Virus record (IMG/VR): IMGVR_UViG_647533161_000005
Strand: one strand, 5' to 3'
Origin: a virus
Taxonomy: Duplodnaviria; Heunggongvirae; Uroviricota; Caudoviricetes
DNA: 49,155 bases
Shown here: one piece after another, positions 4,909-48,109 of the stretch
Position numbering within the stretch: position 1 is the first letter of the stretch
Layout of the letters: each line of letters opens with the position of its first letter
Notes under the pieces: model-generated
The model's input: only the letters and a program-made list of their open reading frames with translations
What the model was told of the DNA's origin: nothing
Databases searched by the model: none
Position numbers and translations under genes: made by a program

Positions 4909-5384
4909 AATGGCAGCCTCTTGGTTGAGTATTAATAACTCACCACCAAGGTTTTCCACGACCATAAGGGTGGTGAGGCGTACAGGGGTGGAAATACCGG
5001 TCAACCAAGAATCCGGCCAGCCTTGCAGCTGCCCTGCACGCCCCACCATAATCTGAATGTGGCTGTGCTTGACGCATAAAAAAACCGCCTGAGCGCGGTT
5101 ATGCGCTTGATTGAATTCCGGGTTTCCACGCCCGGCACCCGTTTTATGAGGTGCAGGTGCACTATAATTCCACCCGTTCTGGTTTTCAATAGCTACATTC
5201 AACATTTTCTCTTACCTTTCATCACCGAAGTGAACTTTGTTGATGCGGTGCCTGGTGCCTCCAGGTGACGTTAACCAGTTAACAATTAACGCCGGATACA
5301 GAGAATCCACCCATAACACTGTTTTTGGTTTTAACTGTTCCGCGTGCGCTTAGCCGCATTCACCGCATCACAAAATTCACTTTA

Positions 5385-5437
5385 AAAAGGGTGGCAGAGC
5401 AGTCACGGAGTAGAACTGATGCCACCAAAGACTACAC
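5385..5437 (-). ncRNA. dicF: DicF-like small RNA with intrinsic terminator
   Basis: Minus-strand sequence ...CTTTGGTGGCATCAGTTCTACTCCGTGACTGCTCTGCCACCCTTTTT closely matches my recollection of K-12 DicF (TTTGGCGGTATCAGTTTTACTCCGTGACTGCTCTGCCGCCCTTTTT), with paired changes GGCGG to GGTGG and CCGCC to CCACC that keep the terminator stem. Ends are approximate. Confidence 0.6.
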
Positions 5438-5735
5438 ATGGGTATTGTGGCGGGGCTGTCACTTAAGCGTATGGTCAACCTGACAACCCGGTGCATTTTC
5501 TGGAGCAATGGAGGAAACCCCAGCCATACTTACCGCCGCGCCATTTCGCGGATTGCCACAACCGGAAGCGCACGATCGAATTAAATTTAACGACGACCTA
5601 TACAGAGAGACTAACTTCGCCGGGCGCTTTCGTGTTATGCCCTGACTTTTCAGGGATATATCCTTTTTAGTAAACTGTCAGTGCCGGATTCTTATCCGTG
5701 TCCGGCGCACGCACTCTACCTCACCTGTGAATAAA

Positions 5736-13643: not shown

Positions 13644-13901
13644 ATACAGCGAACGCCATTGGTTTAGTTGGATATTTACTGTGCCGGACAAAAACGGTTT
13701 GCGGGGAAATCTTAGTTAAGTAGAATAACTGCGGGTGCTTGAGGCTATCTGTCTCAGGCATGAACACCAAAAGGCAGATAGAGAAAAGCCCCAGTTAACA
13801 TTACGCGTCCTGCAAGACGCTTAACATTAATCTGAGGCCATATCTATGCGACACATAGAGATTAGCCTCTTACGGACCGAAAGGTCAAGGAGAAGCAGGC
13901 T

Positions 13902-14057
13902 ATGAAGCAGCAAAAGGCGATGTTAATCGCCCTGATCGTCATCTGTTTAACCGTCATAGTGACGGCACTGGTAACGAGGAAAGACCTCTGCGAGGTACGA
14001 ATCCGAACCGGCCAGACGGAGGTCGCTGTCTTCACAGCTTACGAACCTGAGGAGTAA
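13902..14057 (+). CDS. hok: Hok/Gef-family type I toxin
   Basis: 51-aa product MKQQKAMLIALIVICLTVIVTALVTRKDLCEVRIRTGQTEVAVFTAYEPEE, matching HokD/RelF as I recall it. Below the 60-aa cut-off of the supplied ORF track. Confidence 0.85.
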   Translation: MKQQKAMLIALIVICLTVIVTALVTRKDLCEVRIRTGQTEVAVFTAYEPEE

Positions 14058-17927: not shown

Positions 17928-18228
17928 TGTGGTAAATGGGCGGCTGGTGGGTGTGGTGGTTGTTGCTTTCCCGTTGCTGAAAAAGAAAACGCCAGACTGT
18001 TAGCCGGGTATCAGTTAGCGGGAGAAATTTTTAAATACTTCACAATTCAGGCGGTTGACTGTTGTCTGGTTTGCGGGGAGTTTGTTAAAAGAAACTGGCA
18101 TGGTGAATCCCCCTGTGCGGAGGGGCAATCAGCGAGTAGGTATATGGGATAATCGCGGATTCAGGTGCTGGTACTGAATTCACCGGGAGGCACCCGGCAC
18201 CATGCAATGGCACATAGCGCCACTCTCC

Positions 18229-18255
18229 AGCCCCTCTCCGGAGGGGCTGTTTATA
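18229..18255. terminator. Hairpin terminator downstream of the minus-strand gene 18284..18619
   Basis: Hairpin agcccctc-tccg-gaggggct. Confidence 0.5.
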
Positions 18256-18283
18256 TTGATTTTGTCAGATGTGAGTAAACTCC

Positions 18284-38323: not shown

Positions 38324-39067
38324 ATGACACAGACTGAATCAGCGATTCTGGCACATGCCCGGCGGTGTGCGCCTGCGGAGTCGTGCGGCTTCGTGATAAG
38401 CACGCCGGAGGGGGAGTGGTATATCCCTTGTGTGAATATTTCCGCGGAGCCGGAGGCGTATTTTCGTATCGCACCGGAAGACTGGCTGCGGGCAGAGATG
38501 CAGGGGGAGATTGTGGCACTGGTCCACAGTCATCCCGGTGGGCTGCCCTGGCTGAGCGAGGCTGACCGGCGGCTGCAGATAAAAAGCGCACTGCCCTGGT
38601 GGCTGGTCTGCCGGGGTGACATTCACAAATTCCGCTGTGTGCCACATCTGACGGGACGGCGCTTTGAGCACGGGGTGACGGACTGTTACACGCTGTTCCG
38701 GGATGCTTATCATCTGGCGGGGACTGAAATGCCGGATTTTCATCGCGAGGATGACTGGTGGCGCAACGGCCAGAACCTTTACCTGGACAATATGGCGGTC
38801 ACCGGCTTTTACCGGGTGCCCCTGTCCTCTGCACAGGCGGGCGATATTCTGCTGTGCTGCTTTGGTGCTTCGGTACCGAACCATGCCGCCATTTACTGCG
38901 GTAACGGTGAGCTGCTTCACCATCTGCCTGAACAACTGAGTAAACGGGAGAGGTATTCCGAAAAATGGCAACGACGAACGCATTCTGTCTGGCGTCACCG
39001 CCACTGGCACGCATCTGCCTTCACGGGGATTTACAACGATTTGGCCGCCGCCTCAGCCTGTATGTGA
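38324..39067 (+). CDS. K: Tail assembly protein K (JAB/MPN and NlpC/P60-like regions)
   Basis: MTQTESAILAHARRCAPAESCGFVIS...ALVHSHPGG (JAB-like HxH) and a C-terminal Cys/His peptidase-like region; position between L and I. Confidence 0.85.
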   Translation: MTQTESAILAHARRCAPAESCGFVISTPEGEWYIPCVNISAEPEAYFRIAPEDWLRAEMQGEIVALVHSHPGGLPWLSEADRRLQIKSALPWWLVCRGDIHKFRCVPHLTGRRFEHGVTDCYTLFRDAYHLAGTEMPDFHREDDWWRNGQNLYLDNMAVTGFYRVPLSSAQAGDILLCCFGASVPNHAAIYCGNGELLHHLPEQLSKRERYSEKWQRRTHSVWRHRHWHASAFTGIYNDLAAASACM

Positions 39068-39645
39068 ACACGGCAGCGGAAGCCATTCGCGCCCTGTCGA
39101 TGCAGATGCCGGGCTTTCGCCGTCAGATGAACGAAGGCTGGTACCAGATACGTATTGCCGGTGATGACACGGCACCGGAGGCGGTGTACGCCCGTCTTCA
39201 CGAACAGCTGGGTGAGGGAACGGTCATCCACATTGTGCCGCGACTGGCCGGGGCCGGAAAGGGTGGACTGCAGATTGTGCTGGGGGCGGCAGCCATCGTG
39301 GGCTCTTTCTTCACGGCCGGTGCCTCGATGGCGTTATGGGGTACAGCCCTGAGTGCCGGCGGTTTTTCTGCCACCACAATGCTGTTTTCACTGGGTGCCA
39401 GCATGATACTGGGCGGTGTGGCCCAGATGCTGGCCCCGAAGGCAAAAACACCGGATTACCGCGCAACGGATAACGGCAGACAGAACACGTACTTTTCCTC
39501 GCTGGATAACATGATTGCCCAGGGGAACCCGATGCCGGTGCCTTACGGGGAAATGCTGGTTGGCTCCCGCCGTATATCCCAGGACATCAGCACCCGTGAT
39601 GAAGGCGGGGGCGGAAAGGTCGTGGTTATCGGGCGGCAGGGGTAA
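38965..39645 (+). CDS. I: Tail assembly protein I
   Basis: ..LASP..ARICL.GDLQRFGRR..L.V.T.AEAIRAL...P.FR.......YQ.RIAG.D...VIHIVPR.AGA..GG.QIVLGAAAI.GSFFTAGA...YFSSLDNM.AQGN..PV.YGEM.VGSR matches lambda I. Confidence 0.85.
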   Translation: MATTNAFCLASPPLARICLHGDLQRFGRRLSLYVNTAAEAIRALSMQMPGFRRQMNEGWYQIRIAGDDTAPEAVYARLHEQLGEGTVIHIVPRLAGAGKGGLQIVLGAAAIVGSFFTAGASMALWGTALSAGGFSATTMLFSLGASMILGGVAQMLAPKAKTPDYRATDNGRQNTYFSSLDNMIAQGNPMPVPYGEMLVGSRRISQDISTRDEGGGGKVVVIGRQG

Positions 39646-39660
39646 AAAGAATAAAAAAAT

Positions 39661-39690
39661 CCCGCAGTGATCGCGGACAGGAACTGCGGG
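39661..39690 (-). terminator. Hairpin with adjacent T-run on the minus strand (I-J spacer)
   Basis: Stem cccgcagt/actgcggg (8 bp, 14-nt loop) preceded on the plus strand by an A-rich run. Confidence 0.4.
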
Positions 39691-39858
39691 AGAGTTACGA
39701 AGATTAAGTGTAAGGAATTATTCTTATATCACGACAAAAAAATTAACGCAGAGAAATTATACGCGCCACAGTCAGTTTGTGAAAATGTGAAGATATTCAG
39801 AATTTTTATGCCATTACCGGTTTTAACCAACAGGATTATCGGTGGGCATGAAAGAAAA

Positions 39859-39890
39859 CCCCGGTATCTGCTGATACCGGGGTTTCTCTT
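39859..39890. terminator. Bidirectional hairpin terminator (I-J spacer)
   Basis: Stem ccccggtatc/gataccgggg with tgct loop, flanked by an A-rich run upstream and tttctcttt downstream. Confidence 0.5.
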
Positions 39891-39988
39891 TAGCATGGCA
39901 GAAATGTGTTTCATGCTTTTCGGGCGAAGGATATCCGACTTCTGTACGGAATGGCAAGTGGCGGTTAATTTATTCAGGGGAAGGCTGT

Positions 39989-42900
39989 ATGGGAAAAGGT
40001 GGCGGTAAGGCACACACGCCTCGTGAGGCGAAGGATAATCTCAAATCCACGCAGATGATGAGCGTGATTGATGCGATTGGTGAGGGACCGATAGAAGGTC
40101 CGGTGAAGGGACTGCAGAGTATCCTGGTGAACAAAACCCCGCTGACGGACACGGACGGTAATCCCGTGATACACGGTGTGACGGCGGTCTGGCGCGCCGG
40201 GGAGCAGGAGCAGACACCACCGGAAGGCTTTGAGTCCTCCGGTGCTGAAACCGGACTGGGCGTGGAAGTGACGAAGGCAAAACCGGTGACGCGCACCATT
40301 ACGTCCGCGAACATTGACCGCCTGCGGGTTACCTTCGGGGTGCAGTCACTGGTGCAGACCACGTCAAAGGGCGACCGTAATCCTTCCTCTGTCCGGATTC
40401 TGATTCAGTTACAGCGTAATGGCCGCTGGGTGACGGAAAAGGATGTCACCATTAACGGCAAGACCACCTCGCAGTTCCTGGCCTCGGTGATTCTGGATAA
40501 TCTGCCTCCCCGGCCCTTTAACATCCGGATGGTCAGGGAGACGGCGGACAGCACCACGGACCAGCTGCAGAATAAGACGCTGTGGTCGTCATACACCGAA
40601 ATCATCGATGTGAAACAGTGCTACCCGAACACGGCCATTGTGGGGCTGCAGGTGGATGCGGAGCAGTTCGGCGGCCAGCAGATGACGGTGAACTACCATA
40701 TCCGCGGTCGCATCATCCAGGTGCCGTCAAACTATGACCCGGAAAAACGCACGTACAGTGGTATCTGGGACGGCAGTCTGAAACCGGCATACAGCAACAA
40801 CCCGGCCTGGTGCCTGTGGGACATGCTGACTCACCCGCGCTACGGCATGGGAAAACGTCTGGGGGCGGCGGATGTGGACAAGTGGGCGCTGTATGCCATC
40901 GGGCAGTACTGCGACCAGACGGTCCCGGATGGTTTCGGGGGGACCGAGCCGCGGATGACCTTTAATGCGTACCTGGCACAACAGCGTAAGGCGTGGGACG
41001 TTCTCAGTGATTTCTGCTCTGCGATGCGCTGTATGCCGGTATGGAACGGCCAGACGCTGACGTTCGTTCAGGACCGTCCGTCGGATGTGGTGTGGCCGTA
41101 CACCAACAGCGATGTGGTGGTGGATGATAACGGCGTGGGTTTCCGCTACAGCTTCAGTGCCCTGAAGGACCGGCACACGGCAGTGGAGGTGAATTACACC
41201 GACCCGCAGAACGGCTGGCAGACCTCCACGGAACTGGTGGAAGACCCGGAAGCCATACTGCGCTACGGACGCAACCTGCTGAAGATGGACGCGTTCGGCT
41301 GTACCAGCCGCGGTCAGGCCCACCGTGCCGGGCTGTGGGTGATAAAGACCGAACTGCTGGAAACGCAGACGGTGGATTTCACGCTCGGGTCACAGGGGCT
41401 GCGTCACACACCCGGTGACATCATTGAAATCTGTGATAACGACTATGCCGGGACCATGACCGGCGGACGTGTCCTGTCCATCGATGCCGCCAGCCGTACC
41501 CTGACGCTGGACCGGGAGGTGACACTGCCGGAGACCGGCACGGCCACTGTTAATCTGATTAACGGCAGCGGTAAGCCGGCGAGCGTGGCCATCACCGCAC
41601 ACCCCGCGCCTGACCGGATACAGGTCAGCACCCTGCCGGATGGTGTGGAGACATACGGTGTGTGGGGACTCTCCCTGCCGTCACTGCGTCGTCGCCTGTT
41701 CCGCTGTGTCTCCATCCGGGAAAACACGGACGGCACCTTTGCCATCACGGCGGTGCAGCACGTACCTGAAAAAGAAGCCATCGTGGATAACGGGGCCCGC
41801 TTTGAGCCGCAGTCAGACACCCTGAACAGCGTTATCCCACCGGCAGTGCAGCACCTGACGGTGGAGGTGAGCGCAGCTGACGGCCAGTATCTGGCGCAGG
41901 CTAAATGGGACACGCCGCGGGTGGTGAAGGGCGTGCGCTTCAGTCTGCGCCTGACCAGTGGTAAGGGAACGGATGCCAGACTGGTGACCACCGCCATCAC
42001 CGCAGACACGGAGCACCGTTTCAGCGGCCTGCCACTGGGGGAATACACCCTGACGGTGCGGGCCATTAACAGCTACGGCCAGCAGGGCGAACCTGCGACC
42101 ACCACCTTCCGGATTGCCGCACCGGCAGCACCGTCGCGGATTGAGCTGACGCCGGGGTATTTTCAGATAACGGCGGTCCCGCGTCTTGCGGTGTATGACC
42201 CGACGGTACAGTTTGAATTCTGGTTCTCAGAAAAACGCATCACGAACACGGCACAGGTGGAAAAATCTGCCCGTTATCTGGGGACCGGCAGTCAGTGGAC
42301 TGTCCAGGGGAGCCGGATTAAGCCGGGGACGGATTTCTGGTTTTACGTGCGAAGCGTCAACCTGGTGGGAAAATCTGCTTTTGTGGAAGCCAGCGGGCAG
42401 CCCAGCAATGATGGTGAAGGGTATCTGGAAATTTTCCGGGGGCTGATAGATGAGACGCTTCTGGGCCAGGCACTGAAAGAGCGCATTGATGCTTCAGCGC
42501 TGCGTACGGAGGTCACGCAACTGGAAGAAGACATCCGTCAGCGGATGGACACGGATATCGCAGAAGTGACCCGGAAAATCGGGAAGGCGGAAAACAGCCT
42601 CACGCAGCTGGTTGCGAAAAAGAATGAGGACCAGACACTGGCCATCGCGCAGGTGAGCCAGAAAGTGGACCGGGTGAGCAGTGAAATCTCACAGACTGTC
42701 AGCCAGGGGCAGTCAGAAAACGCCCGACAGATAGCACAGGTCCGCCAGTACGTGGATAAAAAAGGGAGTGAAATTACCTCGACCACGGATAAAAAGCTGG
42801 GTGACCAGGCCGTGACCATACAGCAAATCCAGCGGGTTCAGTCAGACACGCGCAATGAGCTGAATGCCATGTATATGCTGAAGGTGCAGAAAACAAAAAA

Positions 42901-43681
42901 CGGTATTCCCTATGTGGCCGGGATTGGTGCGGGGATTGAGGATGTTGATGGTCAGACGCTGAGCAGTATTCTGCTGCAGGCGGACCGTATCGCGATGATT
43001 ACCCCGGAGAATGGCAACACCACGCCGCTGTTTGTGGCGCAGGGGAATCAGCTGTTCATGAACGACGTGTTCCTGAAGCGACTGTTTGCGGTGAGCATCA
43101 CGTCATCCGGCAATCCTCCTACGTTTTCCCTGACGCCGGATGGCAGGCTGACAGCCCGCAATGCGGATATCAGTGGAGCCATCACGGCGAATACCGGCAC
43201 GCTCAATAATGTCACCATTAACGAGAACTGTGTCATCAGAGGGAAACTGTCTGCAAACCAGATTGAAGGCGATCTCGTTAAAACAGTGGGTAAGGCTTTC
43301 CCCCGTGACTCCCGTGCACCGGAGCGTTGGCCATCAGGAACCATTACCGTCAGGGTTTATGACGATCAGCCGTTTAACCGGCAGATTGTTATTCCGGCGG
43401 TGGCTTTCAGCGGTGCCAGACATGAGCGGGAGAACAGCGATACTTATTCGTCATGCCGCCTGATAGTACGGAAAAACGGTGCTGAAATTTATAACCGTAC
43501 CGCGCTGGATAATACGCTGATTTACAGTGGTGTTATTGATATGCCTGCTGGTCGCGGCCACATGACGCTGGAGTTTTCTGTATCAGCATGGTGGGTAAAT
43601 GGCTGGTATCCCACAGCAAGTATCAGCGATTTGCTGGTTGTTGTGATGAAGAAAGCCACTGCAGGCATCACGATTAGCTGA
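39989..43681 (+). CDS. J: Tail tip / host specificity protein J
   Basis: 1230-aa ORF matching lambda J along its length ([19 protein letters not shown]...[16 protein letters not shown]...[34 protein letters not shown]...). Confidence 0.95.
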
Positions 43682-47525: not shown

Positions 47526-48109
47526 TGGCATTCAGAATGAGTGAACAAGCACGGACCATAAAAATTTATAATCTGCTGGCCGGAACTAATGAATTTATTG
47601 GTGAAGGTGACGCATATATTCCGCCTCATACAGGTCTGCCAGCAAACAGTACCGATATTGCACCACCAGATATTCCTGCTGGCTTTGTGGCTGTTTTCAA
47701 CAGTGATGAGGCATCGTGGCATCTCGTTGAAGACCATCGGGGGAAAACGGTTTATGACGTAGCGTCAGGGGACGAGTTATTTATTTCTGAACTCGGTCCG
47801 TTACCGGAAAATGTTACCTGGTTATCGCCGGAAGGGGAGTTTCAGAAGTGGAACGGCACAGCCTGGGTGAAGGATACGGAAGCAGAAAAACTGTTCCGGA
47901 TCCGGGAGGCGGAAGAAACAAAAAACAACCTGATGCAGGTAGCCAGTGAGCATATTGCGCCGCTTCAGGATGCTGCAGATCTGGAAATTGCAACGGAGGA
48001 AGAAACCTCATTGCTGGAAGCCTGGAAAAAGTATCGGGTGTTGCTGAACCGTGTTGATACATCAACTGCACCTGATATTGAGTGGCCTACGAACCCTGTC
48101 AGGGAGTAA
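47525..48109 (+). CDS. tfa: Tail fiber assembly protein (Tfa)
   Basis: [59 protein letters not shown]... matches lambda Tfa; TAATG overlap with stf. Confidence 0.9.
47940..48109 (+). repeat. Direct repeat copy 1 (tfa 3' end)
   Basis: About 170 bp that recur at 48985..49155 with roughly 85-90 percent identity by eye. Confidence 0.7.

Follow-up and report, generated by a model that had tools for sequence, protein, structure and literature searches.

The tail operon carried by the window, i.e., the whole stretch of 49,155 nucleotides of Caudoviricetes DNA analyzed here (IMG/VR record IMGVR_UViG_647533161_000005), has 343 bp between the tail assembly gene I and the tail tip/host specificity gene J (Table 1), and across positions 39650–39850 the GC content falls from approximately 0.60 to 0.31–0.38. 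This agrees with the original prediction, which described an AT-rich insertion of about 340 bp at this place. Its comparison with phage lambda needs to be corrected: J was said to follow I directly there, but the two genes are separated by a 60-bp gap (NC_001416, between 15445 and 15504), which contains a hairpin followed by a U run, both in the operon sense, and lacks the sRNA module described below.

Two strong hairpins flanked by A/T runs had been noticed in the spacer, and both are indeed present, with energies well below those of shuffled sequences. The arms of the left one, hairpin 1, occupy positions 39661–39668 and 39683–39690, preceded on the plus strand by A7 (39653–39659); on the minus strand its energy is −15.7 kcal/mol (z = −3.3 against shuffles). 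The arms of hairpin 2 (39856–39868 and 39873–39885) are complementary at 13 out of 13 positions and enclose a loop of four nucleotides, and the energies are −32.5 kcal/mol on the plus strand and −28.7 kcal/mol on the minus strand (z = −6.6 and −6.4, respectively), with none of the shuffles folding as well.

ORFs of 113 amino acids (plus strand) and 94 amino acids (minus strand) extend across the I–J gap. The three spacer ORFs queried have no Pfam matches, a PHROG search of the spacer ORFs yielded at most a sub-threshold match to phrog_21778 (E = 0.095, the 94-aa ORF), and the ORFs are conserved neither in related spacers nor across spacer types, in line with the earlier statement that the spacer has no convincing ORF. 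An Rfam 15 search of positions 39000–40600 at a permissive E-value gave nothing above chance (the top match being PK-repZ, 18 bits against a threshold of 44), and a scan of the whole window at gathering thresholds placed no family in the spacer. A search for terminal inverted repeats or target-site duplications around the spacer returned short, chance-level matches only.

Table 1. Features of the I–J spacer and its neighbors (window coordinates).
Feature	Position	Strand	Evidence or description
Tail assembly gene I (upstream neighbor)	38965..39645	+	ORF; Pfam PF06805 Lambda_tail_I, E = 1.8e-16
Rho-independent sRNA terminator (hairpin 1 of the original prediction)	39653..39690	-	CCCGCAGU...ACUGCGGG, then A + U7
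Predicted primary transcript, sRNA of the PasB/EcOnc22 family, 97 nt	39653..39749	-	Promoter/terminator scan, alignment with the PasB locus, module profile
UUAAUCUUC, most conserved single-stranded motif, putative seed just 5' of the terminator	39699..39707	-	Conservation profile
AAG-AAU-AAU tract (39725-39717), then UUCCUUAC	39710..39725	-	Alignment of 54 sRNA variants
Sigma-70 promoter	39756..39783	-	-35 TTCACA 39783-39778, 16-bp spacer, -10 TATAAT 39761-39756
Conserved dyad TCTGA-N6-TCACA, CRP-like	39786..39801	-	9/10 core positions; centered near -44.5 relative to the predicted start
Right-hand segment of the "long" spacer, 178 bp, separately inherited, invariant	39813..39988		Sequence comparison
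Hairpin 2, terminator-like, T-rich tracts on both strands	39856..39891		Folding
Weak promoter-like match TTGCCA-18-TATCCT, 9/12	39928..39957	-	Promoter scan; sole candidate start for a second RNA
Tail tip/host specificity gene J (downstream neighbor)	39989..43681	+	ORF; gpJ annotation in all related loci

The Predicted Minus-Strand sRNA Gene

Hairpin 1 is a predicted intrinsic terminator of the minus strand, as the A7 stretch of the plus strand becomes the U7 tail there; an independent consensus scan also calls it a minus-strand terminator. The promoter directed toward it, located approximately 90 nt upstream on the minus strand, matches the sigma-70 consensus at 11 out of 12 positions according to the promoter scan, and its elements and spacing are those found in E2348/69, where the RNA is expressed. 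The predicted start is G39749 and the predicted end is approximately 39653. The 5′-end in E2348/69, estimated from the RNA-seq coverage, lies 15 nt downstream of the position equivalent to the predicted start; by analogy with the end mapped in that strain, the mature RNA may begin near 39736 and would then be approximately 84 nt long.

Folded alone, the predicted RNA consists of the terminator hairpin following approximately 57 nt of mostly open A/U-rich sequence, and its 5′ part comprises a U run, the (AAN)3 tract, a UUCC/CUCC motif, and the conserved UUAAUCUUC, whose ATCTT core is invariant among the spacers found by BLAST. The stem of hairpin 1 is also identical in all these spacers, while the loop is variable. 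The (AAN)n tract may represent a motif of the type bound by the distal face of Hfq, and the CC motif resembles an anti-Shine–Dalgarno sequence. The profile constructed for the module matches the window only once (39812–39654, E = 6.9e-43).

The dyad, TCTGAATATCTTCACA (39801–39786), is the sole site of this kind in the window, with 0.09 expected by chance. In the comparison of alleles, both pentamers are fixed, N6 exists in five or more versions, and the −35 region is variable; judged by the sequence, such a combination of fixed half-sites and a variable N6 looks typical of a site for a dimeric regulator. In CRP-dependent class II promoters, TGTGA-N6-TCACA is centered at −41.5. The center of the dyad at −44.5, counted from the predicted start, is 3 bp off this canonical position, and CRP is therefore named as a candidate regulator only. 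PasB is more abundant in LB than in DMEM rich in glucose, which CRP control could account for, but this is a weak argument, since the two conditions differ in other ways too.

Relationship to PasB and EcOnc22–24

PasB from enteropathogenic Escherichia coli (EPEC) O127:H6 E2348/69 is an RNA of 83 nt encoded on the minus strand (NC_011601.1, 1466343–1466261; Pearl Mizrahi et al. 2021, PMC8550237, Table S6). It has been confirmed by Northern blot with the probe AATCCCGCAGTGATCGCGGAGCT, has a log2 fold change of −6.8 in the hfq mutant, participates in 37 RIL-seq interactions, and is present at a higher level in the non-activating condition (PMC8550237). According to its coordinates, PasB lies in the gap between the tail assembly gene and the gpJ gene of E2348/69, both on the plus strand. 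The probe agrees with the plus strand of the window at 20 out of 23 bases (39658–39677), and the E2348/69 gap can be aligned with the window from the terminator across the sRNA body to the promoter, whose −35 and −10 elements and their spacing are identical.

Aligned pairwise over the whole RNA, the predicted window RNA is 74% identical to PasB and 74% identical to the allele of the O157:H7 Sakai prophage Sp15. PasB and the window RNA share the I–J locus of a lambdoid prophage, the antisense orientation, and the terminator stem with the U7 tail; IS009, reported for the flanks of PasB, is found near the window gene too. They differ in the 5′ body, the terminator loop, and the residue preceding ATCTTC (UUAAUCUUC in the window, UUGAUCUUC in PasB), and the 343-bp spacer of the window is of the "long" type, whereas the 240-bp spacer of E2348/69 is of the "short" type. 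In a recent survey (Zhu, Shabalina & Storz 2026, bioRxiv 10.64898/2026.05.13.724894), PasB variants are a few nucleotides apart, and the PasB seed is proposed at the position equivalent to UUAAUCUUC. At 74% identity, compared with these few nucleotides, the window allele is a divergent member of the known family and probably lies outside the published set of PasB variants.

Similarly, EcOnc22, EcOnc23, and EcOnc24 were described as three homologous Hfq-CRAC peaks in prophages Sp15, Sp14, and Sp11, respectively, of enterohemorrhagic E. coli (EHEC) O157:H7 Sakai (PMC4104026, Table S2); they produce Northern signals of approximately 85 nt and are destabilized in the hfq deletion strain, and no terminator was flagged near them by the screen of Tree et al. 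(PMC4104026). As this table is based on an older Sakai record, its coordinates were shifted by +128 to +146 to fit NC_002695.2. The shift was calibrated on AgvB1, by comparing the Rfam match in NC_002695.2 with the table entry. A second calibration by Rfam, in Sp12, gave no match, and the comparison of PasA with EcOnc51 was used instead; it is consistent with the shift, as +128 puts the end of the peak exactly on the terminator U run. In NC_002695.2, all three peaks fall into I–J gaps on the strand antisense to the tail genes and cover the predicted sRNA body, the shifted EcOnc22 peak lying inside the predicted Sp15 sRNA, over the U run, the seed, and the 5′ arm of the terminator. The module architecture of EcOnc22–24 is that of the window, with 74% identity to the window allele and with spacers of the short type.

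We accordingly link EcOnc22–24 and PasB as one family, the link depending on the correction between the versions of the Sakai record. The link itself was not found in the sources: Table S6 of PMC8550237 gives no EHEC homologue, and EcOnc goes unmentioned in the 2026 survey. In a 2021 review, the targets of EcOnc22 were still listed as unknown, and searches of the literature by sequence strings and combinations of gene names retrieved nothing more.

The window RNA has in common with this family the locus and strand, a homologous sequence, and the terminator with U7, and we consider it highly probable that the I–J gap harbors a self-contained sRNA gene antisense to the tail operon, a "moron" of the PasB/EcOnc22–24 family. 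The original prediction had allowed for a small RNA gene, which was right as to the kind of the gene, specifically a member of this family, but its extent, the assignment of the strand, and the roles given to the hairpins have to be revised. It had drawn a unit of about 170 nt between both hairpins; the promoter is in the middle of that unit, and the RNA of approximately 84–97 nt ends at the left hairpin.

Family Alignments and Distribution

Matches to the spacer were found in 1847 out of 5426 complete E. coli genomes, in up to nine places per genome and almost always on the chromosome. In all 20 loci fetched, the match directly follows gene I or, in one truncated prophage, a remnant of the upstream tail gene, and where J is intact, the match precedes it. 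No annotated feature underlies the spacer among the matches listed.

A pattern scan of one genome per species produced 29 matches, of which two, both in E. albertii, are real; the other 27, considered as possible family members, were rejected as terminators occurring by chance in unrelated phyla. In agreement with this, Zhu et al. (2026; bioRxiv 10.64898/2026.05.13.724894) report a restriction to Escherichia and Shigella.

Among the 186 modules collected from the BLAST spacers and IMG/VR contigs, there are 66 different promoter-plus-sRNA modules, with 54 different predicted sRNAs of 90–103 nt; the BLAST set consists of 20 spacers, and the IMG/VR set, of 66 unique modules. Common to the modules are an A-rich stretch, the TCTGA-N6-TCACA dyad, −35 and −10 elements separated by a constant distance, GCGUUA where the RNA is predicted to begin, with a U run after it, UUAAUCUU, U(A/G)AUCUU(C/U), the stem CCCGCAG/CUGCGGG, and the U tail. 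The (AAN)3–4 tract followed by (C/U)UCC or UUCC is present in 54 out of 54 variants, and the remainder of the sRNA body and the terminator loop are variable. A large share of the IMG/VR sample was retrieved by a pattern requiring AATCTT and the terminator stem, and hence only the BLAST set gives an unbiased view of how well these two elements are conserved; there, too, the ATCTT core and the stem are invariant.

Structure conservation across relatives had been named as a check of the original prediction. RNAalifold applied to the 54 variants recovered the terminator only, with zero covarying pairs and no conserved 5′ structure. As the stem is identical in all variants, it offers no covariation signal for or against the terminator.

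The window allele is the commonest one in the IMG/VR sample, and spacers at least 99% identical to that of the window are present in 633 complete-genome records. Window-identical spacers are often seen in extraintestinal lineages of E. coli, and O157 strains carry many copies of the module. Strains with the identical spacer include ATCC 25922 (100% identity) and E. coli CE10. There are also tandem arrays with two sRNA modules in one I–J gap (e.g., loci L012, L083, and L091).

The Right-Hand Segment and the Pre-J Hairpin

The two halves of the long spacer are inherited separately. Across 1442 E. coli records, the right-hand segment shows at least 99% identity and always lies in an I–J spacer; it pairs with several different sRNA bodies, and the left half occurs with at least three right-hand contexts. 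Homology between the spacer types ends just upstream of the dyad.

Short spacers (235–254 bp; E2348/69, Sp15, and others) contain the hairpin CAGGCAyCC-TCCG-GGrTGCCTG followed by TTGTTTTT, in the operon sense, with one compensatory change (C-G to U-A). The hairpin preceding J in lambda occupies the same position as hairpin 2 and the short-spacer hairpin, although its sequence is unrelated. Since lambda, short spacers, and long spacers each carry such an element there, the operon-sense pre-J hairpin is ancestral, and hairpin 2 is not a part of the sRNA gene but the local version of this hairpin. The insertion relative to lambda is essentially the sRNA module, placed between the stop codon of I and the pre-J hairpin.

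Having T-rich tracts on both sides, hairpin 2 could, by its sequence, be active in either direction. Late transcription, being antiterminated by Q, would pass the hairpin. In lysogens, the pre-J hairpin could keep unmodified transcription from entering J; alternatively, it could stabilize a processed mRNA end.

Two proposals on the origin of the right half were rejected. As a decayed sRNA module plus the 3′-end of I (short repeats D1–D3), it yielded nothing with nhmmer, and the corresponding scores were reached by 107–227 out of 500 shuffles. As for the derivation of hairpin 2 from a longer relative, the sole variant context, in locus L075, turned out to be an IS3-family insertion.

Possible Mode of Action

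The near-consensus sigma-70 promoter (39783–39756, minus strand) would drive an RNA of approximately 84–97 nt that stops at hairpin 1 with its U7 tail. By homology, the sRNA would be expressed from the resident prophage, bound and stabilized by Hfq, and act in trans, base-pairing with mRNAs of the host and of the accessory genome. The U7 tail and the terminator would contact the proximal face of Hfq, and the AAG-AAU-AAU tract (39725–39717), the distal face. ARN motifs are established as determinants of Hfq distal-face binding. The distal-face reading is also in line with the finding of Tree et al. themselves (PMC4104026). Pairing would proceed through the open region beside the terminator, that is, UUAAUCUUC (39707–39699) and possibly the anti-Shine–Dalgarno-like UUCCUUA.

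For the window allele, the start site, the seed, and the trans mechanism are inferred, and at 74% identity to the studied alleles, its targets may differ from theirs. Complementary 10- and 11-mers within the window are no more common than in shuffled sequences, and hence point to no targets there.

Alternative Interpretations

The module might instead act mainly in cis, its antisense RNA or convergent promoter causing RNase III cleavage or transcriptional interference and thereby tuning J relative to the upstream genes; the converse form of this reading has the abundant late mRNA titrating the sRNA in the lytic cycle. Between I and J, the late transcript and the sRNA show full complementarity, the sRNA ending 7 nt past the stop codon of I, and the location of the module is fixed in every member, which would suit a cis function, including one exerted simultaneously with a trans role. 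Yet the sRNA overlaps neither the coding sequence of I nor the ribosome-binding site of J, a gene that begins at 39989, 240 nt away. PasB has 37 trans partners in RIL-seq and is made in lysogens, whose late operon is silent (PMC8550237). Moreover, short single-stranded motifs are kept among alleles that are approximately 74% identical, which favors pairing in trans and argues against a purely cis-antisense role, as the latter needs no such motifs and would constrain no sequence. We therefore consider a mainly cis-acting module quite unlikely. Since the sRNA is perfectly complementary to the I–J part of the late mRNA, the two could nevertheless titrate or cleave each other upon induction, alongside the trans action that we prefer.

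Other alternatives concern the limits of the gene. A single RNA of about 150–200 nt, or an inserted element, delimited by both hairpins would fit two strong hairpins flanked by A/T runs, but it is very improbable: there is a promoter inside the unit, pointing at hairpin 1, the homologous RNAs are 83–85 nt long (PMC8550237, PMC4104026), the two halves are inherited separately, and terminal inverted repeats and target-site duplications are absent. The last observation also speaks against the original suggestion of a remnant of an inserted element, as does the constancy of the promoter, the seed-like motif, and the stem in the 54 variants. Equally hard to sustain is the view that the gap is a linker without function, in decay, or holds a spurious small protein gene. 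A few phage records do annotate short hypothetical ORFs in the equivalent gap; however, the spacer ORFs have no Pfam matches and one sub-threshold PHROG match and are unconserved across spacer types, the promoter, the motifs, and the terminator are kept in 1847 genomes with up to nine places in each, and the homologues are abundant Hfq-bound RNAs (PMC8550237, PMC4104026). More deserving of attention, although still unlikely, is the proposal of two tandem sRNA genes, with the right-hand segment encoding a second minus-strand RNA of approximately 70 nt that would start at about 39921 and end at hairpin 2 with the tail UUUUCUUUC. On the minus strand, too, hairpin 2 is followed by a U-rich tail (−28.7 kcal/mol), a promoter-like site is situated at a suitable distance from it, and two-module I–J gaps exist elsewhere (e.g., L012, L083, and L091). 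On the other hand, promoter-like matches in the 1.6-kb region number three, against 0.9 ± 1.0 in shuffles, and hence a lone 9/12 match, which is weak and within the chance range, carries little weight. The right-hand segment has no homology to the PasB module by nhmmer or alignment and no match in the Rfam search, it has no diverged relatives and thus provides no comparative signal, and both lambda and the short spacers carry an operon-sense hairpin at this position without any such gene.

Comparison with Known Systems

Phage "morons" (Juhala et al. 2000, as cited in Tree et al. 2014, PMC4104026) are the closest general analogy to the sRNA module. As in morons, extra DNA is situated between genes that are close in lambda, it has its own predicted promoter and terminator, and it is expressed from the prophage in the case of the homologues; transcription autonomy has been observed for the homologues in lysogens (PMC8550237). 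The window module thus has the features that define a moron, namely, its own promoter and terminator, both predicted, and a place between genes adjacent in related phages. In contrast to morons, which are protein genes in the operon sense, the module carries a non-coding RNA read from the other strand, and its place is the tail operon, not the PR′ moron site.

AgvB and AsxR (RF02702 and RF02703) are likewise prophage-encoded and Hfq-dependent; they are conserved in the 3′ part but variable in the 5′ part, and an EHEC genome has several copies. However, these RNAs are 51–60 nt long, have a conserved 3′ domain of 42 nt, are located downstream of PR′, and are unrelated in sequence to the window sRNA. 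Neither RF02702 nor RF02703 matches the window, and by length, locus, and sequence the window sRNA falls outside the AgvB/AsxR group.

Significance of the Module

The family has already been validated in EPEC and EHEC, and for the window our result is mostly a correct annotation rather than a discovery. New are the link between PasB and EcOnc22–24, the anatomy of the gene throughout the family, with its promoter and dyad, the broader distribution, and the recognition of hairpin 2 as the counterpart of a pre-J hairpin that is also present in lambda. Roughly one in three complete E. coli genomes has the module; earlier work on the family dealt with only two or three alleles, known by two names that had not been connected. 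The gene escapes annotation pipelines, with no feature under the matches listed and no Rfam family. Alleles that have in common the promoter, the candidate regulator site, and the 3′ seed and differ in the 5′ body provide a set of constructs for testing effects on the host.

A broader and rather doubtful interpretation would treat the I–J gap as a site for RNA cassettes shuffled by recombination, occupied by an Escherichia-only family. In this interpretation, the promoter, the CRP-like dyad, and the 3′ seed with the terminator would stay fixed, while the 5′-ends would diversify, sometimes in tandem; the right-hand segment of the long spacer would encode a second sRNA or act as a bidirectional insulator; the dyad would tie the output of the prophage sRNA to a global regulator of the host such as CRP; and the abundant late mRNA would serve as a sponge removing the sRNAs on induction.

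Organization of the I–J gap in other loci

The PasB-type sRNA module, a gene with its own promoter and terminator, is not always single: some I–J gaps carry two modules in tandem (positions 701–1171 of L012, a locus of NZ_AP027217.1, and also L083, L091, and L165), each with a separate promoter and terminator, the two bodies having diverged from each other. Disrupted versions of the locus were observed as well. In L013 and L014, and also in L050, L053, L093, and L116, the sRNA body and terminator are retained, while the promoter is replaced and J is absent; the replacing sequence adjoins the sodC gene (Cu-Zn superoxide dismutase) on the opposite strand. At the same point, L015 carries an IS66-family element, and in L075 (4790–6010) the long spacer, that is, the gap of the type seen in the window, is interrupted by an IS3-family element.

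The 60-bp I–J gap of phage lambda (NC_001416; L261, 746–805) holds, in the operon sense, AAACCGCC-UGCG-GGCGGUUU followed by UGUCAUUU, a terminator-like hairpin immediately upstream of J.

Two exact copies of an 11-nt direct repeat, GGCGAAGGATA, are present, one within the spacer's right half (39923–39933) and the other within the 5′ end of J (40027–40037), probably by chance.

Other prophage RNAs in the window

The Rfam scan of the whole window matched six further prophage RNAs. One of them, IS009, is reported to be among the commonest structured RNAs near PasB (Zhu et al., 2026, bioRxiv 10.64898/2026.05.13.724894).

Further prophage RNAs matched by Rfam in the window
RNA	Position	Strand
C4 antisense RNA	4966–5053	−
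isrK	5078–5154	−
DicF	5389–5440	−
sok	13733–13904	+
STnc100	18069–18258	+
IS009	47868–48066	+

Immediately upstream of STnc100, positions 18025–18064 (plus strand) marginally match the sRNA-module profile (E = 0.2), and the sequence AAATTTTTAAATACTTCACAATT at this place is similar to the PasB upstream region AAAAATTCTGAATATCTTCACATTT; this likeness may reflect a promoter or regulator site in common.

Coordinates of the EcOnc RNAs

The EcOnc coordinates in Table S2 of Tree et al. (2014) are offset by approximately +128 to +146 bp relative to the current Sakai RefSeq record (NC_002695.2), at least from 1.94 Mb onward, and hence mapping these sRNAs onto NC_002695.2 requires a correction of +128 to +146 bp.
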